Assembly (NCBI GenBank): GCA_041662625.1
Contig: JBAZSB010000001.1
Span: 535,189-599,188, forward strand
Source: Patescibacteria group bacterium
Lineage (GTDB): Bacteria > Patescibacteriota > Patescibacteriia > Buchananbacterales > UBA6539
DNA length: 64,000 nt
Direction of reading: 5' to 3'
The notes beneath the pieces are model-generated. The model was not told where the DNA came from, made no database searches, and saw only the letters and a program-made list of their open reading frames with translations. The translations under genes were made by a program, and so were the position numbers. Within the stretch, counting starts at the first letter, position 1; every line of letters starts with the position of its first letter. Below, in pieces: positions 4,430 to 59,734 of this stretch.

Positions 4430-4712
4430 ATTGATTAATTAATATCATTCTAAATTTGGGGGTAAATAAAAATCTGCCTCAAAAAGCCAGATTAAATCTG
4501 CTGGCAAGTTGTTTGGCTTTTATTTTTTAGAATTGTTAATCTCCTTAAATAATGCCTTGAAATTATAGAGGTTTTTCCCAAGTCTTGATTAAAGGGAAAC
4601 TTTCTCTATATTTTCAAAGATTAATTGCTAACTTATAGCTTACAGCTTTTAGCTGCTAGTTTATAGCTTCTCCAAAAGTTCTACAAGCTACAAGCTATCA
4701 GCTAAAAGCTAA
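4430..4712. repeat. Unusually long rpsJ-rplC spacer, rich in AGCT-containing short repeats (AGCTNNAGCT...)
   Basis: 283 bp of non-coding sequence inside the S10 operon. Contains agctacaagctatcagctaaaagct and tagcttacagcttttagctgctagtttatagctt, plus a hairpin GCCAGCAGATTTAATCTGGC followed by a U-run on the minus strand. Confidence 0.4.
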
Positions 4713-5081
4713 TTACACCATTTTTATTTCGACATCAACTCCGGCGGGTAAATTAAGATTCTGCAATGAATCAACCGTCTTAGGAGAGGGATCTAAAATA
4801 TCTAATAACCGCTTGTGGATCCGCATCTCATACTGTTCCCGGGAATCTTTATGGACAAAAGAAGATCGTAAAACCGTATATTTTTTCTTCTCCGTTGGTA
4901 AAGGAACCGGGCCCAAAATTCTAGCACCCGTTCTTTCAACCGTGTCCATAATCGTTTTAGTCGACTGATCAATAATTTTATGATCGTAGGCTCTGATTTT
5001 AATTCTGATTTTTTGTTTACTCTCCTCAGCTTCTTCATCTTGTTGGCGAGAAGAAACCGGAATTTTCTTGATTGCTACCAT
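4713..5081 (-). CDS. rpsJ: 30S ribosomal protein S10 (true start may be internal)
   Basis: [71 protein letters not shown] is S10. Confidence 0.9.
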
Positions 5082-9154: not shown

Positions 9155-9200
9155 TATTCTAATATTAGAATATTTAAAATTGATTCAAAATTAAAAATTA
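9121..9200. repeat. AT-rich intergenic repeat (copy 1), related to 47590-47700
   Basis: Both copies share aattttgaatttt, aatattctaatatt and aaaattaaaaattaaaaatt. Confidence 0.5.
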
Positions 9201-9211
9201 AAAATTCAACT

Positions 9212-21945: not shown

Positions 21946-22045
21946 ATCAGTATCCTCCTTCCGTTTGTCACGAATTATAACTCCAGTTGATGTCAAGGTT
22001 CCAACTCCCTCCATGACTTACAAAGACAATCTAAGTAAGACAATC

Positions 22046-22141
22046 AAAAAAACCTTCCGGGTGGAAAGTCTCTCTGATCGTTTTACTTATTTCTGATTTC
22101 TTATTTCTGATTTCTCATCTTAAGACTTCCACCCAAAGGCT
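22046..22141 (-). terminator. Attenuator terminator of the Ile leader (GGGUGGAAGUCUCU...AGAGACUUUCCACCC + U7)
   Basis: Long hairpin with a perfect U7. The 5' arm and preceding 22 nt (UUAGCCAGCCUUUGGGUGGAAG) are identical to the Leu attenuator. Confidence 0.65.
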
Positions 22142-22864: not shown

Positions 22865-23461
22865 CTACTCAAACATTACGTCCTCATCAGATCTTTTGTA
22901 GTTATCCACAATGTCCCCTTTCTTAAACCAAAGTTGTTCTTCATATTTGGCTTCCTCGGTATTTCCCGAAGCATGCATGATATTACGGACTGCTCGCTTT
23001 TTAACATTAGCCAGGGCTGGAGAATCAATTGAAAAATCACCGCGGATAGTGCCAGGGGTGGCAAAAACCGGTAAGGTATTGCCGGCCAAGGCCCGGACAT
23101 TATCAATGGCATGAACCCCTTCCAGTAAAATTGCAACCACAGGACCGGAAGTAATAAATTCGATATTCCATTTGTTCACCAACTTACCAATCGCGGCTGG
23201 GTCAAGATCAGCAAATTCTTCATGAGGGTCTCGGCCATATTTTTCGTAAGTTTGTAAAGTCTTTTCACCAATTGCCTTCATCAGTTCAGTCCGATTCTCG
23301 GGGTAATGTTTTTTTGCTAAATCAGCATCAACCCAAACCATTTTCATGGCCTTAATTTTTAAACCCATTTTTTCAAAGCGAGATAGCACTTCACCAACCA
23401 ATCCCCGCTTTACGCCATCGGGTTTGACTAAAACTACAGTTTTTTCTTTTTGTAAGTCCAT
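22865..23461 (-). CDS. ndk: Nucleoside diphosphate kinase
   Basis: VLVKPDGVKRGLVGEVLSRFEKMGLKI...RGDFS...NIMHASGNTEEA is the NDK fold, with an insertion. Confidence 0.9.
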   Translation of the reverse strand: MDLQKEKTVVLVKPDGVKRGLVGEVLSRFEKMGLKIKAMKMVWVDADLAKKHYPENRTELMKAIGEKTLQTYEKYGRDPHEEFADLDPAAIGKLVNKWNIEFITSGPVVAILLEGVHAIDNVRALAGNTLPVFATPGTIRGDFSIDSPALANVKKRAVRNIMHASGNTEEAKYEEQLWFKKGDIVDNYKRSDEDVMFE

Positions 23462-23466
23462 ATTTT

Positions 23467-23508
23467 AGGAATTAGGAATTAGGAATTAGGAATTAGGAAT
23501 TAGGAACT
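23467..23508. repeat. Heptanucleotide tandem repeat (AGGAATT)x5 plus one imperfect copy, immediately upstream of the ndk start codon
   Basis: Direct reading: aggaatt aggaatt aggaatt aggaatt aggaatt aggaact. Confidence 0.75.
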
Positions 23509-23529
23509 TATTATCCTACTGCCTACTTC

Positions 23530-23931
23530 CTACCCCCTTACTAAATACGCCTTAACTTTTTCCACTACCTGCGTCGGCGTCATCGAAGCTTTGACAATAT
23601 AATCAGCTGCTCCCAACTTTTTGCCTTTACTGACATCATCTTGCTGACCTAAATTCGAAAGCATTAAAACCGGAATATTCTTAGTTTGCGGATCATTTTG
23701 CAATTCAGTCAAAACAGCGAACCCGTCCATTTTTGGCATCATCACATCCAACAGGATAACGACCGGTAATTCTTTTTTCGCTAATTCTAAAGCAGCTAAA
23801 CCGTCTTGGGCAGTGATAACCGTCAATTCCGATTCCTTAAACTTAATGTTATACATCTCTAAGAGTGTATCATCATCCTCAACGATTAAAATTTTAGCAT
23901 CATTATTCACCATATACAGCCAGCATAACAA
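23530..23931 (-). CDS. Single-domain response regulator (CheY-like receiver)
   Basis: ILIVEDDDTLLEMY...LLDVMMPKMDGFAVL...ADYIVKA are the receiver-domain motifs (phospho-accepting Asp, conserved Lys). Confidence 0.8.
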   Translation of the reverse strand: MLCWLYMVNNDAKILIVEDDDTLLEMYNIKFKESELTVITAQDGLAALELAKKELPVVILLDVMMPKMDGFAVLTELQNDPQTKNIPVLMLSNLGQQDDVSKGKKLGAADYIVKASMTPTQVVEKVKAYLVRG

Positions 23932-34752: not shown

Positions 34753-36078
34753 CTATAGGTCCAAATATCTTTTCAATTCTTTCGGCGTTACTTCGGTTTT
34801 CTGCTCATCTATTTCTATGTGCTTGGCATCAATGAATCTATCCAAAGTATGCTGCGTGATAGCACTCTTAATCACTTCATCTTGATTCAATTCATCAATC
34901 GCTTCTGGGAGTGAACCCGGCAGACTGGATATTTTTAACTCTTGTTTTCTGTTGCTATCTAAATGATAAATATCTTCTTCAACTGCCTTAGACAATGGCA
35001 TGTCTTTTTCAATTCCATCTAAACCGGCTGCTAATATTGCCGCAAAGGCTAAATAAGGATTGCATGACGGATCAGGTGATCGAAGTTCAACCCTGGTTGA
35101 TTGCTCACGGCCGGGTGTATACCGTGGAATTCGGATAAGCGCCGAACGGTTCATCTGGGCCCAGCAGATATTGACTGGCGCTTCATAACCCGGAATCAAT
35201 CTTTTAAAAGAGTTGGTAGTTGGATTGGTTAAGGCCGTAAAACTTCGACTGTGTTTTAGCAATCCGGCAATAAACTGGTAAGCGATTTTTGACAGCTTAT
35301 AACCATTATTATCTTCGTAAAATAAATTATTACCTTTCAAATCAAACAAACTCAAGTGAACATGCATGCCCGACCCATTGATACCAGCAAACGGCTTTGG
35401 CATAAATGTCGCGTTGACGCCATAACTTTGGGCAATGGCTTTGATGGTAGTTTTTAAGGTAATAATGTTATCGGCTGTATTTAAGGCATCGGCATAACGA
35501 AAATCTATTTCATGCTGGCCAACGGCAACTTCGTGATGTCCGGCTTCAATTTTTATGTTTAGTTCAGATGAAGCTTTGATAACGTCTTCCCTGATTTTTG
35601 AGGCAATATCAAAAGGAGAAAAATCAAAATAACCGCCATAATCGTGAGGCACGGGAGCTAAATTACTGTCTTTTTGCAAAAGAAAAAATTCCAGTTCAGC
35701 ACCGACATTCAAAACATATCCCTTTTCTTCTGCCCTTTTCATTGCTTGCCGCAAAATGTAGCGAGGATCACCGCTAAATGGTTTTAAATCAGGCCCGTAG
35801 ACATCACAGATTATCCTGGCCGCTTTATTATCTTTTGTGCTCCAAGGTAAAGTACAGTAAGTTTTTGCGTCAGGCATTAAAAGCTGATCACTTTCGGCAA
35901 TTCTGGCAAACCCTTCAATTGATGAGCCGTCAAACCAAACGCCTTTTTCTAAGGCACCGGGCAATTGTTCAGTCGGAATAACTACGTCTTTAGGCACGCC
36001 CAATATATCCGTAAACTGCAAATGAATGTATTTAACGTTGTCTTTATTGACTTTTTCTAAAAGTGTTTCCTTATCCAT
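34753..36078 (-). CDS. glnA: Glutamine synthetase type I
   Basis: 441 aa with KPFAGINGSGMHVHLSLF and the ATP-binding region. Confidence 0.95.
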   Translation of the reverse strand: MDKETLLEKVNKDNVKYIHLQFTDILGVPKDVVIPTEQLPGALEKGVWFDGSSIEGFARIAESDQLLMPDAKTYCTLPWSTKDNKAARIICDVYGPDLKPFSGDPRYILRQAMKRAEEKGYVLNVGAELEFFLLQKDSNLAPVPHDYGGYFDFSPFDIASKIREDVIKASSELNIKIEAGHHEVAVGQHEIDFRYADALNTADNIITLKTTIKAIAQSYGVNATFMPKPFAGINGSGMHVHLSLFDLKGNNLFYEDNNGYKLSKIAYQFIAGLLKHSRSFTALTNPTTNSFKRLIPGYEAPVNICWAQMNRSALIRIPRYTPGREQSTRVELRSPDPSCNPYLAFAAILAAGLDGIEKDMPLSKAVEEDIYHLDSNRKQELKISSLPGSLPEAIDELNQDEVIKSAITQHTLDRFIDAKHIEIDEQKTEVTPKELKRYLDL

Positions 36079-36142
36079 AGTTAATTGTTAATTGTTAAAC
36101 TAAAAAAGCGCCTAAATCATTAGACGTCTTTGTCGGAATTGT

Positions 36143-40015: not shown

Positions 40016-40105
40016 ATTTAAACTTCGAGCTAAGAACTATGAACCCCAAACCTTGAACAATAAATGAATGTTTGCAGTTCTAGGCTCTAGGTTCTAAGTT
40101 CCATG

Positions 40106-43910: not shown

Positions 43911-44450
43911 TTAGTTATTTATTGCAGCCAAAACCTTCAATTTACTTGATTTCGCCCAAATCATTGCTCCTTCATAAACACCAAATAAAACCGAAGTATA
44001 AAAGAGATCACCAAGCATTGAATTACGGAAGAAAGGTAAGGCGAGGGTATAACAATGAATCAAGCCGGCAAAACTTTTAGTATACCAGGGGGAAAATTGC
44101 CAAACCGCATAATTAGTCACTAAATAAAATAAAACTGAAGCAACCAGACTGGTGGCCACTACAGTTTCTAAACTTTTATATCTTTTAATTAGGCTACCTA
44201 ATAAACCAATTATGATAAAACTGCTATAAACTGCTAACATCACTTTAAAATCGTAGAAACCAATAAATAAATCGCCAATTAGCATCGTGATGACGGGTAA
44301 AACAACAGCGTAACGCCGGCCTAAGTAAACACCAGCGAATAAGGCAATTGCTGCTACCGGCGCAAAATTCCACATATGCGGCAGAAGCCGGCAACTGACT
44401 CCCAAAATAATGAGGATAGCTGAGATAATAAGTTTAGTTTTTTTGTCCAT
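43911..44450 (-). CDS. ECF-transporter S-component-like small membrane protein (candidate cobalamin-specific, CbrT-like)
   Basis: 179 aa, 5-6 TM. Last gene of the B12-riboswitch operon. This is assigned by context and topology, not by motif. Confidence 0.45.
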   Translation of the reverse strand: MDKKTKLIISAILIILGVSCRLLPHMWNFAPVAAIALFAGVYLGRRYAVVLPVITMLIGDLFIGFYDFKVMLAVYSSFIIIGLLGSLIKRYKSLETVVATSLVASVLFYLVTNYAVWQFSPWYTKSFAGLIHCYTLALPFFRNSMLGDLFYTSVLFGVYEGAMIWAKSSKLKVLAAINN

Positions 44451-44488: not shown

Positions 44489-44944
44489 TTATTGAATTTG
44501 CCCCCGAATATATTTCCATTCGACAAAATCACCATCATTCAGCTTATAGGCGCTGGCCCCAATCTCAGCATATTTATTATTGACCCAGTACTGCCAATAT
44601 TTATCACCAGCAATACTGTTTTTTATGTCCCCGACTCCTTCCACAAAAACTCCGAGTTCACCGTAATCTTTGGAGCTTAATTTCAAATTATTTTCTGAGG
44701 TGACTTTTTCCAATAAAGTAAAAACTGCGGCATCTTTGGCTAAACTAACATCGTTAAATGTCCGGACTTGGCCATTGCCGAAATCAAGCATCAGACTAAC
44801 AACGATTGTTTCTTTTTGGTTTTGCTCCAAAGGTTGATTAATTGCTTTATTGCCATCAGAGGGCGATAAAGCTTGCTGACCCCCAATATAGAAACCAGCA
44901 ACGAAGATAGCGACGGCAATGATAATTTTAGCCAGTAGTTTCAT
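44489..44944 (-). CDS. DUF4430 (transcobalamin beta-domain-like) secreted protein
   Basis: The C-terminus YWQYWVNNKYAEIGASAYKLNDGDFVEWKY matches the DUF4430 pattern. Signal anchor. In the B12 operon. Confidence 0.6.
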   Translation of the reverse strand: MKLLAKIIIAVAIFVAGFYIGGQQALSPSDGNKAINQPLEQNQKETIVVSLMLDFGNGQVRTFNDVSLAKDAAVFTLLEKVTSENNLKLSSKDYGELGVFVEGVGDIKNSIAGDKYWQYWVNNKYAEIGASAYKLNDGDFVEWKYIRGQIQ

Positions 44945-44949
44945 AGTTA

Positions 44950-44985
44950 TTAGATTAGGAATTAGTTATTAGGTATTAGGAATTA
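44950..44985. repeat. Degenerate heptamer repeat ATTAGGN x5 (same motif family as 23467-23508)
   Basis: Reads attagga attagtt attaggt attagga attagg. Confidence 0.5.
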
Positions 44986-45525
44986 GGCTCTAGTGCGCCT
45001 AATTACTAACCACCTCTTATACAGCAATTTTACCCCAAAAACTAATCCTAAACAAGCAGCCACTAAGACAATTAAGCCGACTATTAACCACCAGGTTGGC
45101 CAGCCCAAGCTATTAATAGTAATTGGCAATTTCACCCCAGATGCTGCAGAAAAGCTTGAAGCCTCTAAGGGCCGAGCCACAATGGAAATATTAGTACTAA
45201 ATAAACCCGGCGTCTTAACTCTGATTTGGACTTTCACTAGTTGGTTTGCTCCGGCATCAAGCAAAAAATCAGTTGGTGCAATTTCAATTGCCTTTTCTAA
45301 AGCATCGGGATAAATCTGATATAAGGCTGGCTGATCAGCGACATTCATCACCAAAAATTCAGTAACAGTCACTTTACCAGTTTTAACTTGTAAATCAATT
45401 CGTTTCGGCTTAACCCCTACCCCCACTGCCTGAACCGACTGTCCAATCATAAAACTTACTAAAATCAAGATCAATAACCCACCAAAATTCCTGCGATTGG
45501 CGATTGGCGATTGGCGATTGGCCAT
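44983..45525 (-). CDS. Surface protein with signal peptide and C-terminal TM anchor (180 aa)
   Basis: The N-terminus is encoded by a heptanucleotide repeat. The stop of the upstream gene is 3 nt from its ATG. Confidence 0.55.
   Translation of the reverse strand: MANRQSPIANRRNFGGLLILILVSFMIGQSVQAVGVGVKPKRIDLQVKTGKVTVTEFLVMNVADQPALYQIYPDALEKAIEIAPTDFLLDAGANQLVKVQIRVKTPGLFSTNISIVARPLEASSFSAASGVKLPITINSLGWPTWWLIVGLIVLVAACLGLVFGVKLLYKRWLVIRRTRA
45494..45521. repeat. Heptanucleotide tandem repeat (CGATTGG)x4 inside the first codons of the surface-protein gene
   Basis: Encodes M-ANRQSPIANR on the minus strand. The unit length is not a multiple of 3. Confidence 0.75.
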
Positions 45526-45528
45526 AAG

Positions 45529-47316
45529 CTATTGACTGGTAGCCCAAAAAATCAATTCGCCAGACTTAACACCGGAAGCCAAATAATTTCCCGGAACAGT
45601 TAAAGAAATCCCGGCAGTTTTACTTTCATTGGGCAGAAGGGTTTCGGTATAATCAGTACAAAGCTGGTCATTGATTTTAATCCCTGAAACAAAAACAACA
45701 TCACCGCTAACCGCAGCACCGACGTTTAAGCCGACTGTCCCGCCATTAGTTAAATTAACAACCCGGCTGTTAGTTTGGCCCGGCGCCAAAGTGCCGAAGT
45801 TAAGCTGGGACTGATCAACTACCAAAGCAATGGCTTCACCGCCAATATTACCGCCACCACTTTGGTTAATCTCAACTTGTAAACCCACTTTTTGACTGAC
45901 TGTATCACCAACAGTAATTTTTGATTTTTCACTACGAATAAATCCTGGCGTATCAATGTAAACTTGATAAAAACCATTCTGATTGATCGTTAAGGTCAGA
46001 TGCCCCGAAGCATCAGCAGTCCGAACTTCTTCGTTGACTTTAATCACTGCATTAGGTAAAGGCAACCAATCAGTGCCATTGAAATATTGGGCGGCAACAT
46101 TGACCACTTCACCCGGATCTATCTCAAGTGGACTGGCATTAAGTTGCGTTGGATTCCAGCCCCATTCACCATAATAGAAAAGGACTTCATCGCCGGCTGC
46201 CAAAGTATAGCTATCAGCGCCGATTGGCGGCGAAATATTATCCACGAAATAAAGCCAGCCTGACGTTCCTTGCGCTTGCTCATCATTGATTGCCCGTAGA
46301 TACGGGCCGTAACTTTCTTGAGTGATTGTATAAGTATAACCGCAGATGGCTGCAGCGTTTTTCACTAAATCTAAAGCGTTAGTACCAGCCACTTGGGTAT
46401 CACAAATAGTGCTGGTGCTACCCTCAAGTCGAAGATGATAAGTACCCAGGTTTGAACCGTTTTGATAATAGCCAACCGGATAAGTTTTATTACTTAAAGC
46501 AATAACCGCAAAAGCCGTCATCGCCTTATTATTCCACTCCGAAGTGCCTTCCGTAACCCACCAAAAACCGCCATCTCCATCCTGCAAAGATTGTAAATGA
46601 GTAACTGGATTTTTTCCATTCTGATTCCAACTGTTGGGATTAACCCCCGCTTTAATCAGGGCGGAAATCACCCAGGAATCTGACCCAGCATCAGAATCAC
46701 TTCCCACCTCATACCCAATTCCCCCGTCAGCATTTTGGGCGGATTGAATATAGGCTAAAGCCCCAGTAATTACCACATCACTGTTGCTAACTCCAGCTTC
46801 AACTAAAGCCATGATCGCCGCGGCCGTGTCATTGGTATCGCTGCCAGCACCAACCGAATAGCTCCAGCCGCCATCAACATTTTGATGAGCTAACAAAAAA
46901 TTCTTCGCCGCACTGGCTTCTGGTGAGTTAACTTCACCCACTGAAGCTAGGGCTAGAATCGACCAGGCATCATCATTCAGTAAATTTTTGTCTCCCATTT
47001 GGTTATCACTAAAATACGTTTTCAGTTTAGCTACATAATCAATGGTGCCAAAAGTTTTGGGGTTTTCCCCAACTGCGGCCAAAGCTAAGATAGTTTTGGC
47101 GTAATCCGTGGCTAAATTACCGGAAACACTATGCAAGTAGCCAACTGGAATACTGGTTTCACCGGCTGCTTTTAAAGCCAAAGTGATCCACGGATCATCA
47201 ACTTGGCTTTTCAGATAAGTTACTGCTTCTGGGACTCCAGCCGATACAAAAGCCGGCTGAAAGATGAATGCTAGCATCAGCAAACTAACCCAGAAATTTT
47301 TGATTTTTGTCCTCAT
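45529..47316 (-). CDS. Secreted alpha/alpha-toroid (prenyltransferase/squalene-oxidase repeat) protein, transcobalamin alpha-domain-like
   Basis: Signal peptide plus repeated QxxDGG(W/F) motifs (AHQNVDGGWSY, SAQNADGGIGY, SLQDGDGGFWW). First gene after the cobalamin riboswitch. Confidence 0.65.
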   Translation of the reverse strand: MRTKIKNFWVSLLMLAFIFQPAFVSAGVPEAVTYLKSQVDDPWITLALKAAGETSIPVGYLHSVSGNLATDYAKTILALAAVGENPKTFGTIDYVAKLKTYFSDNQMGDKNLLNDDAWSILALASVGEVNSPEASAAKNFLLAHQNVDGGWSYSVGAGSDTNDTAAAIMALVEAGVSNSDVVITGALAYIQSAQNADGGIGYEVGSDSDAGSDSWVISALIKAGVNPNSWNQNGKNPVTHLQSLQDGDGGFWWVTEGTSEWNNKAMTAFAVIALSNKTYPVGYYQNGSNLGTYHLRLEGSTSTICDTQVAGTNALDLVKNAAAICGYTYTITQESYGPYLRAINDEQAQGTSGWLYFVDNISPPIGADSYTLAAGDEVLFYYGEWGWNPTQLNASPLEIDPGEVVNVAAQYFNGTDWLPLPNAVIKVNEEVRTADASGHLTLTINQNGFYQVYIDTPGFIRSEKSKITVGDTVSQKVGLQVEINQSGGGNIGGEAIALVVDQSQLNFGTLAPGQTNSRVVNLTNGGTVGLNVGAAVSGDVVFVSGIKINDQLCTDYTETLLPNESKTAGISLTVPGNYLASGVKSGELIFWATSQ

Positions 47317-47322
47317 AAACAA

Positions 47323-47525
47323 AAAATCTCCCGCCTCGAGGGGGAGTGGTTACTTCATTCGTTCTCTTAGAAAACGAAAGGTCACCGACTCTTGATCTCG
47401 AAGAGTTTAGTGATTTAATAGAGCCATAATTTTCTCGACCTGGCTTACCCCGATTTTATATTGGGGATTACAGTTGCGGATCAGCGGAGGATTCACACCT
47501 CGCTTCGGAAAATTAAAGCTGTTTG
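47323..47525 (-). promoter_or_regulatory. Cobalamin (B12) riboswitch with intrinsic-terminator expression platform
   Basis: Minus-strand RNA contains GGUGUGAAUCC-UCC-GCUGAU-CCGCAACUGUAAUCCCC ... GGGGUAAGCCAGG. This matches the GGUG.AA.UCC...CCGC.ACUGUAA core and the AGYCAGG B12 box. The terminator CUCCCCCUCGAGGCGGGAG plus U6 ends ~10 nt before the start codon. Confidence 0.7.
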
Positions 47526-47589
47526 TCAAAGTATTATCATTGTAGATTGTCTAATTTTCAGTGTCAAGTAAATTTTGTGGATAACTTAA

Positions 47590-47700
47590 TTTTTGGTCTA
47601 ATTTTTAATTTTGAATTTTAAATTTTGAATGAATTTTTAATAATTTAATATTCTAATATTCAAAATTGAATTGAAATTCGAAATTAAAAATTAAAAATTT
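47590..47700. repeat. AT-rich intergenic repeat (copy 2), related to 9121-9200
   Basis: Shares aattttgaatttt, aatattctaatatt and gaaattaaaaattaaaaatt with copy 1. Confidence 0.5.
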
Positions 47701-47703
47701 TTG

Positions 47704-48261
47704 CTAATCTTCAATTCCTTTCCTCGCTTTTAACCCTTGTCTATACGGGTGCTTAATCTCTCTCATTTCCGTCACATAGTCAGCCAGCTTAATTACTTCT
47801 TTTGGCGCTCGGCGGCCAGTCAATACTAACTCAACATTTTTTGGCTTATTTCTAATTAGCTTAATAATATCAGCTATGTAAATCAGCTTAAAAAAGCTCG
47901 CTAAAAAAATCTCGTCCAAAATGACTAGATCAAACTTTTGGCCGGCTATTACCTTTTTGCTCCAACCAAGCGCCTTTTTGGCTAAAATTTTGTCTTTAGC
48001 CGTGCCTTTTTGGTAGATGTAGCTTTCCTGGCCAAAGCGCTTAACTGTGACTTGTGGCAGCCTCTTTAAGCTGTTTAACTCACTATACTGCTGGGCTTTC
48101 AGGAATTGGACAATATAAACCTTATGGCCGGCGCCACTGGCTCGCAAAGCCAAACCAAAGGCCGCCGTGGTTTTGCCCTTACCATCGCCAGTATAAATAT
48201 GGATTTTACCTAAATTATTTTTCATAACCATATTATAGACCAATCCACCTATAAAAAACAA
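47704..48261 (-). CDS. Cob(I)alamin adenosyltransferase (CobA/CobO/BtuR family)
   Basis: P-loop IHIYTGDGKGKTTAAFGLALRASGAGHKVYIVQFLK, DLVILDE and LTGRRAP. Confidence 0.8.
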   Translation of the reverse strand: MFFIGGLVYNMVMKNNLGKIHIYTGDGKGKTTAAFGLALRASGAGHKVYIVQFLKAQQYSELNSLKRLPQVTVKRFGQESYIYQKGTAKDKILAKKALGWSKKVIAGQKFDLVILDEIFLASFFKLIYIADIIKLIRNKPKNVELVLTGRRAPKEVIKLADYVTEMREIKHPYRQGLKARKGIED

Positions 48262-53882: not shown

Positions 53883-54929
53883 CTAAGGAACTAAGTTGAA
53901 ACTTTTAACCATCACTTGAAAAGTGAGGATGAAATTAGTCATTGTATAATTACCAACATTATAATGCAGTAAAAATATTTTACTTGGGTTGGCTGCCGAC
54001 ATTAAATAGTAACTTTGATTATCGAGCGTACGGTAACCAGCAATACCATTAATTTTAACTGCTGTCAGTTGGCCAAGACTAGATTGTGAAAATTGCTCCC
54101 GGTACCAATCAGCCAAAGATAAATTTTGGTCCTTATCCAGCACCAACACTTCAACAAATTCACCGGTAGTAGAAACAAATAAGACTTCGGTTTTCCCGCT
54201 GTTACTTTCCTGAACCCGCCAATTCTTTGGATAGATAATTGAATAAAAAGAATTATTATAAGTAGAAAATAAACCTGAATCAACTAACGAAACTGCCGGT
54301 CGGGTCGGATCATAACCATTAAGTAACTCGGCACCATCGGTATAAGTATCCGAATCACTATCGCTTATTTCTGGATTAGTACCATAGAGACTTTCCTCGG
54401 CCAAAGTTAAATTATCACGGTCAGTATCAGCAGCTATTGGCAAGGGTTGTGAAGCATTCGTATTAGTATTTGTATTAGTATTAACATTAAGATTAGTGTT
54501 GACGTTAACGTTAGTATTAAGGTTTACATTGGTATTGGTATTAGTATTTGTATTGACGTTAACGTTAGTATTAAGGTTTACATTGGTATTGGTATTAGTA
54601 TTTGTATTTACATTTTGGTTCAAATTAGTATTAGTGTTAACTGGCTGATTGGTATTAATTACAGGTGCTGGCGCTTGGTTCTGGCTTAAATTCTGATTAA
54701 GATAAATCGCAACACCAATTAAACCACCAATCAATAAAATACCAACAATGATAATAATAATTAAGCCAGAATGTTTCTTTTTTGGCTGAATATAAAAACG
54801 TTGTGGCATAACATGGATTTGTTGATCTAATCTAGAATTAACCTCCGGGGGTAAATTGGCTACCTCCTTAGATTTTTTTTCTGATTTTTGTTTTCGAATT
54901 CCAAACATAAATAAATATAATGCTAACAA
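53883..54929 (-). CDS. N-rich low-complexity membrane protein with thrombospondin-type-3-like Ca-binding motifs
   Basis: N-terminal TM helix, NTNTNVNLNTNVNVN repeats and DTDRDNLTLAEESLYGTNPEISDSD. The DNA carries a 54-bp tandem duplication (~54489-54596). Confidence 0.55.
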   Translation of the reverse strand: MLALYLFMFGIRKQKSEKKSKEVANLPPEVNSRLDQQIHVMPQRFYIQPKKKHSGLIIIIIVGILLIGGLIGVAIYLNQNLSQNQAPAPVINTNQPVNTNTNLNQNVNTNTNTNTNVNLNTNVNVNTNTNTNTNVNLNTNVNVNTNLNVNTNTNTNTNASQPLPIAADTDRDNLTLAEESLYGTNPEISDSDSDTYTDGAELLNGYDPTRPAVSLVDSGLFSTYNNSFYSIIYPKNWRVQESNSGKTEVLFVSTTGEFVEVLVLDKDQNLSLADWYREQFSQSSLGQLTAVKINGIAGYRTLDNQSYYLMSAANPSKIFLLHYNVGNYTMTNFILTFQVMVKSFNLVP

Positions 54930-55723: not shown

Positions 55724-58700
55724 TTAACGATTGTATTCAAAGCGACAATAAATATGACTGCTTTCATAAGAAGGTCCGGGACTGACAAAACGAGAATGGG
55801 CACCCCAAATTGACCAAGGCATTCGCGTTCCCGCTGGCGTAGTCTGAGAATATTTACTGACATAAATCCGGGTATCAATTAAAGTTGAGGAGTTAGCGTT
55901 GATACTTTGGCAGAGCGGAAAAGTATCTTGGTAGCAAGAGCTATTGGCATAAGTCCAGCTGGAATAATCATAACTAATCTTTTTCCAGTCGTCACCTTGC
56001 GCGTCAGCAGGCGGATAATTAGGATTAGAGGTTTCAACGCAAGTCCCACCCGGGCAATCAGAGGCCCCATTGGGACAAAGGTTACCTTCATTACTGCCAC
56101 CCACACAGCGCTCACCGGTATCTTTAACATAACATTTTAAAGGCATATATGATTGATAGGCTGGGGAAGCTGGATCAGTGGCACTTAGACGATAGGTTCT
56201 TAAAACCGGGTTAACTCCGCCCATCAGAGTACATAAGCCAGTATCATTGTAATTGGCAATTGCTCCTCTTAAAGCGCGATTGCGAATAACTGTCGGGGTG
56301 GTTTGTTCTTCATCATAAGCTTCCAGAGCGATCACATTCATTCCACTAACTAAATAATTACTAACATTAAAGTAAGCCCCCGTGACACTTGGATTAACAC
56401 TATTAGTCGGCGTCAGAGGCACTGCCCGCGGATTAGCAGCAAAATCTACGCAAGTACCGCCCAAACAATCAGAATCAATATCACATTCCTTGCCATCTTT
56501 ACCGCCACCATTGCAAATCTTGTATTTTGGTAAAAACAAATTACCTGTCATCATTTTACCATTGATATAAATATTCATATAATCTTCTGCACCAAAAACT
56601 AACAGACAGCTATTGGCACTGGTACAATTATTACCAGCACCAGATGCGCCACCCTGGCAGGTATCATAAGTGACGCTGCTATTATACCGGCAAATCCAAC
56701 CATTAGTCTTAGTACCGGTCCGACTGACACCACTGTTACAACCAACCGCACAAAGACCATCACCGTCAGCACCTTTAGCCGGATCATCATTATCCGGATC
56801 ATAAGGGCAAACATCATTCTCATCACAGACCCCGTCTAAATCCGCGTCATCACAAGTAGCACAAATTGGCGGATTTGGGGTTGAGCCCTGGCAACTATAG
56901 CCAACCTCACAGCACTGATTACTACCATTACAATCAATATTATTATAAATATATTGGCAATCCAAAGTGGCCGGATTACATTCGCTGCAGACAGCCGAGC
57001 AGCGATCATTGGCCGGTGAAACTGGCACCCCGCATTGATAAACAACGGGATTAGACCCACTCCCCTTGCAGACGCCACATTCCGTGCTAGTTAAACAAGA
57101 ATCAGGGGTTTTGGTTTGGCAATCATAATTATTGCCACTCGGCGTGCATTGGCCGCAAGCGCCACACCAATTAGCCAGATAGGCGGGATTGGTTGAACCA
57201 TCTAGGCAAGTCGGACTGGTGCGATCACAATAACGGCAGGTATAAGTATCACCCACATCGCAATCCCGATAAAGGCAATCACCGCCATAAGCAGTACAAT
57301 GACCGGCATTTAAACAACAAGTAAAACCACCCGGACCTGACTTGCCAGTACAGTCAGAATCAGCACAATCAGTGGAAGTATCGCAATCATTATTATCACT
57401 ATCATTACAAGTCAGTTCGGTACCGACTTCATAAACATTACCATGAGCTGTTGCCCAGCTCGTATAAGTGGTAGTGGTACAACCTTGCCAAGCCCCGCGG
57501 CCGCCGCCAATATCCGCACAAGTCTCGCGGGCGCCACTGCAAACTCCTTGGGTTAAGGAACAAGGCCTCGTATCAACGCCAGCCACACATTGACCACAGT
57601 CAAGCGAACAATTAGTTGGCGTTTCGCTTGGAGTTTCACAAACACCATTACCACAAACCGGCGAGCAATCATTGTCGGTTAAGGCATTACAACTAACCGG
57701 ACAGCAGCTATCACTATTAGTACAAGTAGTTATTGTTGTATAAGAACAGACAGCATTACATTGAGAAGGGTTGCTACAACTGTCAATGGTACAACTATTG
57801 CTGTCATTACAATCGCCAGTTGCATCACAAGCGGGCGGCTGGCAGACGCCGCTGCAACAAAGTTCAGTACCACAGCCGCAGTCAGCCGGACAACTGGCAG
57901 TATCACAAGTTTCCCCGCCTTCACAAGCACCGTCACCGCAATTAGATTCGTCGTTATCAGTTAAATTGGTGCAGCCGGAGTCAGCTAGATCTCTTTGACT
58001 ATCACCATCATTATCCGTACCATCATCACACTGAACCGCTGGGTTAAGTTCGCTAGTATCGCTACCACTGCTGCAACCCGGGTCAGCCGGAAAATCAGTT
58101 TGGCCATCAGAATCATCATCAAGGCCATTATTACAGGCTGTGGCCGCCCCGCAATCCGAAGCACAACTCAATGGCGTTTCCCCGCCTTCACAAGCACCGT
58201 CACCGCAATTCGATTCATCCGTGTCAATTGAATCGGCGCAGCCGGAATCAGCTAAATCTCTTTGGCCATCGCCATCATTATCAAGACCATCATCACATTC
58301 AATTGCTGAGTTAAGCTCGCTATTATCATTAGAATTACTACACCCTGGGTCAGCCGGATAGTCAATTTGACCATCCGAATCATCATCAAGGCCATTATTA
58401 CAAGCGGTAACCGCACCACAATCAGTCGCACAAGAAGCTGAAGTCTCACTACCTTCACAAACCCCGTCGCCGCAATTAGATTCATCAATATCGGTTAAGC
58501 TAGTACAACCAATATCAGCTAGATCAACTCGGCTATCACTATCATTATCAATATTATCATCACATTCAATTGCCAAGTTAAGCTCGCTACTATCACTGGC
58601 GCTACTACAACCTGGGTCGGACGGAAAATCAACTCGGCCATCGCCATCATCATCGCTACTATTATTACATTGGTTAATTGGTGTCACTGTCACACAACTG

Positions 58701-59734
58701 CCGCTTTGACAGATATCAGGCGCTAGACATTGAAACGGACCAAGATCATCAGCCACCGATTCATGAGCATTAACGCACACACCACCGGCCCCATCCGCGC
58801 AGGCCTGGCAAGCCTGGCTGCATTCAGCTTCCAGCCCAAAATCAGTATCGCCCGCCCCAGCGGGGTTGGGGGTCCGATTAATACAGCTGCCACCAAAACA
58901 ATAAGTACACTCCCCTTCACAATGATTACCTTCCTGACTATTAGGCTGGGCACCACACTGTTTAGTTGGCTGACAACGCTGGCAAGGATTACAGTAATTA
59001 TCATTGCCATGGCCAGGGGTAGGACCTTCCCAGCAACAAGTTATCCCGCCTGGTCCCAATTTCCCGGCACAAGTGAAATCCGCACAATCAGCAAAGCCGT
59101 TGCCATCTTCATCACCACTGATATTACAAATTTCCTGGACACAGTTAGAAGCACCCAAGCAATCTGTTGTATCATTGCAATCAACTAAACCATCGCAGTC
59201 ATTATCAAAACCGTCATCACAAGTTAATTCCTTGGGATTATTACTGACTGAATCAAATTCAAAATATGCACTATGGTTAGTGTAAACCTCATTGTTACAA
59301 GCTGGATAAGTACCGTCAGCTAAACGGTTAACTCGAGAGCCAATGCAAACCCCGCTCTGCAAAGGACAGGGGTGGCTGGCACTAGGAACACACTGACAGT
59401 CAGGGTCAAAGCCATCAGTTAAACCATCACAATCATTATCCTTGCCGTCGCTGGAACTAAATTCAATAAATTCAAAAAAAGGTCGGCTATAATAAGTAGC
59501 CATGCTGCAATCAACGAATTGGCCACTGGATGGGCACTGCTCTTGCAACCCAGTACACTCCCCTTCATTGCGAAGGCAGGACATCGGCGTACCGGGGGTA
59601 CAAGAAGCAGCATAAATATTAAAAACGGCAACAACTAAACCAAAAAATATTATTACTAGGCTAAAAATTAAATAGTTTTTCCGAAAAAACTTCATAAATT
59701 TAAATAATATTTTCGCTCTATCTATGGTGAACAA
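55724..59734 (-). CDS. Giant secreted Cys-rich repeat protein (1336 aa)
   Basis: Signal anchor. ~75-aa modules (CNNGLDDDSDGQxDxPADPGC...ECDDGxDNDGDxQRDLADSGC...NCGDGxCEGGET..SC..DCG) repeat three times in tandem, along with many other Cys-rich segments. Confidence 0.7.
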   Translation of the reverse strand: MFTIDRAKILFKFMKFFRKNYLIFSLVIIFFGLVVAVFNIYAASCTPGTPMSCLRNEGECTGLQEQCPSSGQFVDCSMATYYSRPFFEFIEFSSSDGKDNDCDGLTDGFDPDCQCVPSASHPCPLQSGVCIGSRVNRLADGTYPACNNEVYTNHSAYFEFDSVSNNPKELTCDDGFDNDCDGLVDCNDTTDCLGASNCVQEICNISGDEDGNGFADCADFTCAGKLGPGGITCCWEGPTPGHGNDNYCNPCQRCQPTKQCGAQPNSQEGNHCEGECTYCFGGSCINRTPNPAGAGDTDFGLEAECSQACQACADGAGGVCVNAHESVADDLGPFQCLAPDICQSGSCVTVTPINQCNNSSDDDGDGRVDFPSDPGCSSASDSSELNLAIECDDNIDNDSDSRVDLADIGCTSLTDIDESNCGDGVCEGSETSASCATDCGAVTACNNGLDDDSDGQIDYPADPGCSNSNDNSELNSAIECDDGLDNDGDGQRDLADSGCADSIDTDESNCGDGACEGGETPLSCASDCGAATACNNGLDDDSDGQTDFPADPGCSSGSDTSELNPAVQCDDGTDNDGDSQRDLADSGCTNLTDNDESNCGDGACEGGETCDTASCPADCGCGTELCCSGVCQPPACDATGDCNDSNSCTIDSCSNPSQCNAVCSYTTITTCTNSDSCCPVSCNALTDNDCSPVCGNGVCETPSETPTNCSLDCGQCVAGVDTRPCSLTQGVCSGARETCADIGGGRGAWQGCTTTTYTSWATAHGNVYEVGTELTCNDSDNNDCDTSTDCADSDCTGKSGPGGFTCCLNAGHCTAYGGDCLYRDCDVGDTYTCRYCDRTSPTCLDGSTNPAYLANWCGACGQCTPSGNNYDCQTKTPDSCLTSTECGVCKGSGSNPVVYQCGVPVSPANDRCSAVCSECNPATLDCQYIYNNIDCNGSNQCCEVGYSCQGSTPNPPICATCDDADLDGVCDENDVCPYDPDNDDPAKGADGDGLCAVGCNSGVSRTGTKTNGWICRYNSSVTYDTCQGGASGAGNNCTSANSCLLVFGAEDYMNIYINGKMMTGNLFLPKYKICNGGGKDGKECDIDSDCLGGTCVDFAANPRAVPLTPTNSVNPSVTGAYFNVSNYLVSGMNVIALEAYDEEQTTPTVIRNRALRGAIANYNDTGLCTLMGGVNPVLRTYRLSATDPASPAYQSYMPLKCYVKDTGERCVGGSNEGNLCPNGASDCPGGTCVETSNPNYPPADAQGDDWKKISYDYSSWTYANSSCYQDTFPLCQSINANSSTLIDTRIYVSKYSQTTPAGTRMPWSIWGAHSRFVSPGPSYESSHIYCRFEYNR

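Follow-up and report, generated by a model that had tools for sequence, protein, structure and literature searches.

Can a 7-nt repeat placed directly behind a start codon switch a surface protein of a Patescibacteria group bacterium ON and OFF? The question is raised by a perfect heptanucleotide array, (CCAATCG)x4, at the 5' end of a gene for a 180-amino-acid (aa) protein, which lies in a 64-kb stretch of DNA (hereafter the window) on a 922-kb contig of a metagenome-assembled genome (MAG). An original prediction, made from the letters alone, had taken the array for a possible slipped-strand phase-variation switch. We find that it is a potential, not a demonstrated, switch: an unproven coding non-triplet simple sequence repeat (SSR) within a lineage-wide phenomenon of heptamer arrays. 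On balance we favor reading it as a microsatellite that is young, in frame and translated as part of a signal-peptide n-region, tolerated rather than dedicated to switching, and capable of occasional frameshift switching. The features on which this reading turns are the following.

45493..45522, minus strand: perfect heptanucleotide array (CCAATCG)x4 plus a partial unit (Tandem Repeats Finder, TRF; exact unit matches).
45523..45525, minus strand: ATG start codon of the 180-aa gene; junction and M-A-N-R codons kept in the sister-species contigs L003/L004.
44983..45525, minus strand: 180-aa gene (NCBI MFA6254979.1), an open reading frame (ORF) with predicted signal peptide, PapD/MSP-like β-sandwich and C-terminal transmembrane (TM) anchor.
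45427..45525, minus strand: signal-peptide coding region, with n-region MANRQSPIANRRNFGG, h-region LLILILVSFMIG and QSVQA, then predicted cleavage before VGVGVKPK.
45529-45531, minus strand: TAG stop of the upstream gene, in frame with the 180-aa ORF.

The array is real and beyond chance. As had been predicted, the plus strand at 45494-45521 is (CGATTGG)x4, so that the coding (minus) strand reads ATG-G-(CCAATCG)x4; exact minus-strand matches to CCAATCG lie at 45494, 45501, 45508 and 45515, and TRF reports 45493-45522 with period 7, 4.3 copies, 100% matches and a score of 60. In gene sense the sequence TAG CTT ATG G(CCAATCG)x4 CAGG AAT TTT is translated as MANRQSPIANRRNFGGLLILILVSFMIGQSVQAVGVGVKPK..., of which the portion from the ATG through the array is MANRQSPIANRRNFGG...; counted from the ATG, the array runs from +3 to +32 and appears as A-NRQSPIA-NR, residues 2-11 of the protein. 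The start-codon heptamer itself, ATGGCCA, is the repeat unit (read ATCGCCA) with one mismatch. Among periods of at least 5 with at least three perfect copies, period 7 alone occurs in the window, in two arrays (45494-45521 and 23465-23506). With one mismatch allowed there are four period-7 arrays, against 0.0 in 20 Markov shuffles, and we estimate a probability of about 2e-9 for an unbroken run of 23 lag-7 matches within 64 kb. Nor is the array an assembly artefact, because three assemblies from different pipelines agree across it and carry it in identical form.

Several other uses of such a heptamer were considered and set aside. A dispersed motif or binding site was rejected for lack of enrichment of single copies (11 outside the array, 7.3 expected). 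By our reasoning, a protein-binding direct repeat would be untypical, since a 7-bp spacing places successive units on different faces of the helix, and CCAATCG is not a slippery X XXY YYZ heptamer of the kind that programmed ribosomal frameshifting uses. Matches to the heptamer in viral contigs proved to be unrelated arrays. Classical contingency SSRs were not found in the genes of the window, which contain no long homopolymers and no di-, tetra- or pentanucleotide tracts; the array is the sole frameshift-prone SSR within a gene in these 64 kb.

Comparison with the closest relative, a sister species represented by contigs L003, L004 and L005 (80% protein identity), indicates with high confidence that the ATG at 45525 is the true start and that the repeat is translated. 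The sister species reads TAA CTT ATG GCA AAC CGT AAA AAT TTC (MANRKNF). Both junctions take the form TAG/TAA-CTT-ATG, with the ATG 3 nt past the stop of the upstream gene in each. The A-N-R codons are GCC AAT CGC in the window and GCA AAC CGT in the sister species, followed by R/K-N-F; all three differences are synonymous and in the third position, as under purifying selection, and it is for this reason that we count the repeat as translated. The window is exactly 21 nt, or three units, longer than the sister species at this site, where the latter has the equivalent of one unit and no array. The original prediction had placed the repeat inside the 5' coding end and had named a true start downstream of the repeat as grounds for giving the switch up; the same ATG and the synonymous-only changes bear out the placement, and the shared junction and codons speak against the downstream start.

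Several lines of prediction support an exported, membrane-anchored product. In an AlphaFold2 model of the 180-aa protein (pLDDT 89), residues 14-26 are helical, 36-140 form a β-sandwich and 144-179 a long C-terminal (TM) helix; residues 1-10 (pLDDT 57) are predicted to be disordered. Foldseek matched the β-sandwich protein to the PapD-like domains of CEP192 and HYDIN and to MSP (E about 4e-9); Pfam gave a weak PF22544 match. By inspection, the N-terminus has the features of a Sec-type (signal peptidase I) signal, MANRQSPIANRR-NFGG-LLILILVSFMIG-QSVQA then VGVG: a basic n-region, a hydrophobic h-region and a small-x-small motif precede what the model presents as an extracytoplasmic β-sandwich domain. 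The motif QSVQAVGVGVKPK is conserved in 21 homologues. The three extra units of the array amount to seven residues, QSPIANR, in the n-region. Among the 21 other homologues the n-regions are short and variable in length and none has this insertion, from which the 7-aa insertion appears to be derived. At the same place in the n-region, L035 tolerates an unrelated insertion of 11 aa.

When the gene was rebuilt in silico with 0-9 units, 1, 4 and 7 units gave proteins of 173, 180 and 187 aa, and 0, 2, 3, 5, 6, 8 and 9 units gave truncated peptides of 8-47 aa. Gain or loss of one unit does destroy the frame, as had been claimed, and alternative copy numbers, proposed as a check, were seen both to restore and to destroy it. 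Structurally, an uninterrupted non-triplet repeat inside an ORF and past its true start is what a contingency locus calls for, and this gene has one. The claim of a slipped-strand switch holds to this extent; the absence of copy-number variation in the available contigs and the shortness of the tract (four units) speak against it.

Copy-number heterogeneity, which a switch predicts, was not borne out. Four contigs of the species cover the array, namely the MAG contig of the window, a 5-10 kb contig, L001 and L002, and all four have 4 units, in a sample of low power. The exact 180-aa product, which implies four units, is encoded on the first three. Set against the window, L001 shows 2 substitutions, and L002, which belongs to another assembly, shows 4 in 4105 nt; neither has an indel, and L002 likewise has 4 units. 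More strains were sought by exact look-ups of the 180-aa, 151-aa, 179-aa and ndk proteins and of their cluster members, and among the contigs so retrieved the array is spanned only by L001, L002 and the MAG (L032 begins within the gene, and L033 breaks off within the ndk array); one supposed cluster member, P0026 on L042, was unrelated and spurious. Scans of metagenome and genome collections with an alignment of the family brought no further contigs of the species. No length variant of the 180-aa protein was present in its 90% cluster, and a homology search among 15 billion protein sequences found no truncated near-identical (OFF-type) product.

The array is far from alone in its lineage. We surveyed 159 kb of non-redundant sequence with TRF, consisting of the window and 21 related loci from Candidatus Buchananbacteria and Parcubacteria MAGs, and period 7 was the commonest period. 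Of the 25 period-7 arrays, all lie either between genes or no more than 30 nt from an end of an ORF, though 79% of the sequence is ORF interior. Relative to the start codon they concentrate between about -45 and +30, and many stop 2-10 nt short of an ATG that lacks a Shine-Dalgarno (SD) motif. Their units are diverse (TTCCTAA, ACCTAAT, AATTAAC, CTATAAG, CCAATCG and others). In the window, (CCAATCG)x4 is the only strong array on the coding side of a start codon, and whereas most other units contain a stop codon in some frame, its own is stop-free in all three.

23465..23506, minus strand: comparison array (TTCCTAA)x6, perfect, plus strand (TTAGGAA)x6 (TRF); ends 4 nt before the ATG of ndk.
44954..44987, minus strand: degenerate array ACCTAAT x4.9, plus strand ATTAGGT, 85% matches (TRF); between the 180-aa gene and a DUF4430 gene.
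2410-2430, 4632-4711, 9183-9206, 22086-22115, 23465-23533, 36080-36098, 40076-40101, 44954-44987, 47600-47699: heptamer arrays of the window.
L003 4525-4553, L010 3482-3508, L013 1119-1185, L014 4654-4672, L034 2467-2526, L035 2494-2515: heptamer arrays of related loci.
Positions relative to the start codon, for arrays that lie before one: ndk -45 to -4; gene 34753-36078 -20 to -2; DUF4430 gene -43 to -10; L013 -45 to -6.

The two arrays at 23465-23506 and 44954-44987 had been noticed in the original prediction and are indeed there, before ndk (Pfam PF00334, NDK) and between two genes of the same operon as the 180-aa gene. The first had been called related to (CGATTGG)x4, a description we cannot uphold for either: they share just the 7-nt period with CCAATCG, and the sequences are unrelated. 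Since they flank minus-strand genes, the mRNA reads TTCCTAA and ACCTAAT, not the AGGA-containing plus strand. The ndk array is preceded by a partly complementary (CAGTAGG)x2.7 array.

Direct evidence that heptamer arrays change faster than single bases comes from the sister species. L003 shows 0 substitutions relative to L004 and L005 over 3930 and 6531 nt, but differs by a 15-nt indel, AACCTAATACCTAAT, in the ACCTAAT array between the PapD-like and DUF4430 genes (L003 4524; L004 2406-2420; L005 3542-3556). Because heptamer arrays are general at gene boundaries, (CCAATCG)x4 need not be a dedicated switch.

With regard to RNA, no structure involving the coding array was found: there is no excess folding around it (z 0.03), and no Rfam family matches at this position. 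Several intergenic arrays, in contrast, have a complementary partner with which they form a stable hairpin: (CUUGUAG)n with (CUAUAAG)n at 4620-4730 on the minus strand (z -3.5), and the arrays upstream of a riboswitch at 47590-47710, minus strand (z -3.6). Before ndk, the composite (AGUAGGA)x3-loop-(UCCUAAU)x6-ATG at 23455-23550, minus strand, reaches -26.2 kcal/mol (z -1.9), and the same composite stands before a different gene in L013 (1090-1195; z -4.1). In both, the 3' arm exceeds the 5' arm in unit number, and several pairing registers are thus possible. The first units of the ACCTAAT array at 44954-44987 pair with the 3' end of the 180-aa gene in a hairpin of -19.7 kcal/mol (z -2.0). As a separate observation, a strong hairpin followed by a U-run (22030-22080, minus strand; -39.3 kcal/mol, z -4.0) lies between the CAGAAAT array and an ATG at 22014, and it looks like an intrinsic terminator or attenuator.

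Arrays of period 7 or 14 also lie over the start of the orthologous gene in relatives, at L006/L034, L010 and L035, three loci that represent two further origins.

L006 13-47 / L034 1473-1507: ATAGCAT ATGGCAA ATAGCAT ATGGCAA ATGGCTA, with three ATGs in two frames.
L010 2952-2985: (AACATAG AACATGG)x2.4.
L035 1495-1560: GGAACAT GGAACAT AGAACAT, then a GC-rich in-frame insertion.

In these relatives the ATG sits inside the repeat unit, which places ATGs in different frames; in L006/L034 the last of them, at the 3' edge of the array, is in frame. The insertion in L035 is 33 nt long, partly palindromic, located in the n-region and encodes CSLRRSASEAR. L010 and L035 are counted as one origin because both have a GAACAT-type array. 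With the species of the window included, arrays at the PapD-like gene start have three independent origins, namely the window species, L006/L034 and the type that L010 and L035 have in common.

How might such an array have arisen and persisted? We propose that slippage expanded the ancestral Met-Ala-Asn-Arg codons at the start of the gene from 1 to 4 units (+21 nt, +7 aa), the direction being probably one of expansion and not of loss, and that the array would now lengthen the positively charged, disordered n-region of a Sec-type signal peptide. A lineage-wide process that packs the boundaries of genes with 7-nt arrays could have produced it, among others. It would have come to lie on the coding side because a mere 3 nt separate the ATG from the upstream stop and leave no spacer to occupy, and it may survive because its unit is stop-free in all frames, its length keeps the frame, and n-regions tolerate insertions. 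An array of this kind would make the gene frameshift-prone, so that slipped-strand ON/OFF switching is possible; at four units switching is probably slow, and no variation was seen.

Known systems offer a measure for these proposals. The neuO O-acetyltransferase of E. coli K1, carried by the CUS-3 prophage, has an AAGACTC variable-number tandem repeat in its 5' coding region and is ON only at counts divisible by 3, over a range of 3-53 copies; OFF alleles make up 65.6% of 64 genomes, and mixed populations have been measured (PMC13001214). The enzyme is cytoplasmic, and its repeats, which affect activity, are translated as a heptad peptide (PMC13001214). The array described here resembles neuO in having a translated 7-nt unit at the 5' end of an ORF and a full-length product in one of three copy-number classes. 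It differs in being ON at n ≡ 1 (mod 3), in having four copies and no variation in four contigs where neuO has many OFF alleles, and in lying within the n-region of a signal peptide predicted to be cleaved. With its four units (28-30 nt), the tract falls near the bottom of the neuO range, and the sister-species array that did change, with 0 accompanying substitutions, also has about four.

In H. influenzae, contingency tetranucleotide repeats occupy 5' coding regions, heptanucleotide repeats occur at hmw1A and hmw2A, and a heptanucleotide tract of at least 3 units is considered a candidate SSR (PMC2651432). Our array shares with those loci a non-triplet SSR in or near a gene for an exposed protein, a property that is predicted in the present case. 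The heptamers of H. influenzae are mostly found in promoters, with 13-38 copies, whereas here there are 4 copies in a coding region; and the H. influenzae loci have been validated by inter-strain polymorphism and by measured rates of about 1e-4, whereas only 4-unit alleles were seen here in four contigs. A third precedent is provided by the TAACTGA heptamer direct repeats near starts in marine Beggiatoaceae, cyanobacteria and some Bacteroidetes (MacGregor 2015, PMC4679880). As with those repeats, the lineage has many 2-6-copy arrays between genes, often ending a few nt before an SD-less start; close strains differ by indels in arrays; and the arrays, abundant as they are, are largely kept out of ORFs. 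The TAACTGA genomes have one dominant unit, while this lineage has many, none of them TAACTGA. Other arrays of the window, such as that of ndk, lie upstream of a start in an untranslated position where a ribosome-binding site would be expected, as the TAACTGA type does; (CCAATCG)x4, by contrast, is downstream of the ATG and translated, which is rare among TAACTGA repeats (PMC4679880).

Against this background the alternatives can be weighed. That the annotated ATG is unused, with a start downstream of the repeat and the array an untranslated spacer like other heptamer arrays, strikes us as very improbable. It would agree with the non-coding position of all other strong heptamer arrays in the window, with the in-frame ATG at the 3' edge of the array in L006/L034, and with the lack of an SD motif before the ATG at 45525. 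Even a loose SD motif occurs in only 11 of the 58 ORFs in the window (~19%), and its absence therefore means little. The in-frame starts available downstream are TTG codons inside the hydrophobic core or an ATG at codon 26, and their use would delete the charged n-region or the entire signal peptide; the ATG, its distance from the stop and M-A-N-R-(R/K)-N-F are moreover kept in the sister species with synonymous changes only. It is also improbable, if less so, that the array acts as a translation-initiation element, whose heptamer repeats keep an SD-less start region unstructured or bind an S1-/CSP-like heptamer reader, as has been proposed for TAACTGA repeats, and which here lies past the ATG since there is no intergenic space. 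The clustering of arrays from -45 to +30 around mostly SD-less starts, the match with the description in Beggiatoaceae, cyanobacteria and Bacteroidetes (PMC4679880) and the absence of excess structure at the array are consistent with it. For positions -15 to +15 the predicted unpaired probability is 0.33 at n=1 and 0.45 at n=4, an increase below 2 SD when set against shuffled 21-nt inserts (0.34 ± 0.06). The units are all different and hence offer no common binding motif, several intergenic arrays form stable hairpins with complementary arrays instead of staying open, and the sister species does without an array at this site.

A contingency locus, in which the PapD-like membrane protein goes ON (n = 1, 4, 7) or OFF at an appreciable rate through slipped-strand mispairing of (CCAATCG)n, is a possibility that we take seriously and yet doubt. 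Such a locus would create subpopulations without an exposed component of B12 uptake, for example ones that escape a phage or host using it as a receptor. It is suggested by a perfect non-triplet SSR right after a verified start, where a one-unit change truncates the protein, by the neuO precedent with the same unit length and position (PMC13001214), by the standing of the array as the only frameshift-prone SSR within a gene of the window, and by the sister-species arrays that change without base substitutions. Other points weigh against our preferred reading of a tolerated microsatellite, and two of them, the passage through OFF states and the recurrence at this gene, also favor a contingency locus. 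Stepping from 1 to 4 units by 7 nt leaves the frame and needs at least one out-of-frame (OFF) intermediate, so the lineage must have passed through OFF states, as a contingency gene would allow. The invariance was seen in four consensus contigs that are ~99.9% identical and possibly from related samples, in which minority alleles are hidden. Arrays extend into the coding 5' end at 3-4 of 20 starts of this gene, as against 1 of 139 other ORF starts (Fisher p 0.0009-0.006, a post hoc test because the loci were chosen by this gene), and this independent recurrence of period-7/14 arrays in other lineages hints at selection, for variability, or at a gene-specific hot spot. It could alternatively result from the general habit of arrays at start codons, the missing spacer at the junction and a tolerant n-region. 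Further points that count against a contingency locus are the lack of a variant copy number in the four contigs and of an OFF-type truncated protein in the collection, a unit number at the bottom of the range in known switches, an L006/L034 gene that slippage would not switch off, given its in-frame ATG at the 3' edge of the array, and a receptor or antigen role of the protein that has no support.

The genes around the array form a conserved four-gene block, the order of which is kept in L003, L034 and L035.

47379..47534, minus strand: adenosylcobalamin (AdoCbl) riboswitch aptamer at the head of the four-gene block (Rfam RF01482, 52.5 bits against a gathering score of 50, full-length).
45529..47322, minus strand: upstream gene, 595-597 aa, exported (Pfam: prenyltransferase-like α/α toroid plus DUF4430).
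44489..44944, minus strand: DUF4430 protein gene, 151 aa (PF14478, E 4.9e-13).
43911..44450, minus strand: DUF6580 membrane protein gene, 179 aa, last of the block (PF20221, E 1.7e-48).

CobO/BtuR (Pfam) is encoded directly upstream of the operon, and a 786-aa ORF beyond it appears, from its sequence, to encode a B12-dependent ribonucleotide reductase (NrdJ). The layout of the 597-aa protein, a prenyltransferase/squalene-cyclase-like toroid plus DUF4430, presumably resembles that of eukaryotic cobalamin carriers such as transcobalamin and intrinsic factor. The riboswitch, the DUF4430 proteins, DUF6580 and the adjoining CobO and probable NrdJ genes agree with the assignment to a B12 operon made in the original prediction, and, with the AlphaFold2 and Foldseek results, make its phrase for the 180-aa product, a signal-peptide-bearing surface protein in such an operon, a fair one.

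A read-through or fusion of the 597-aa and 180-aa ORFs across the TAG was entertained since the two share a frame and the European Nucleotide Archive (ENA) calls a 777-aa protein (L002 629-2962, corresponding to window 44983-47316). The fusion was ruled out: the ENA call reads the TAG as Gln (Q), TAG ends 16 of the 58 window ORFs (TAA ends 35 and TGA 7), and the junctions of relatives are not consistently in frame. The 777-aa call is an artefact of the code used by the gene caller, which also put unrelated proteins into one 90% cluster. Elsewhere in the window, all long non-overlapped ORFs of which are on the minus strand, in-frame coding repeats of period 6/18/54 occur at 54456-54608 inside a 348-aa ORF (53883-54929), and a 267-nt unit is repeated 2.8 times at 57907-58654 inside a 1336-aa ORF (55724-59734) that probably encodes a large repetitive surface protein.

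Patescibacteria are tiny, uncultured and dependent on other cells and on scavenged cofactors. Our full-text literature search found no report of phase variation or of heptamer arrays in this group. If the array switches, minimal genomes would keep contingency loci, and stochastic switching would be tied to the acquisition of vitamin B12. A broader view, which we consider unlikely at present, is that Buchananbacteria-like Patescibacteria have lineage-wide hypermutable boundary arrays, some of them register-shifting hairpins before starts, and that the repeated invasion of the PapD-like gene start reflects selected stochastic ON/OFF or tuning switches; if true, it would give the candidate phyla radiation its first described contingency locus. 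Even if the array does not switch, it still holds that non-triplet microsatellites in the lineage keep to gene boundaries and that a signal-peptide n-region can absorb such a repeat when the units added are a multiple of three. Both points can help when gene starts are annotated or supposed 'frameshift' pseudogenes are assessed in MAGs of this kind.

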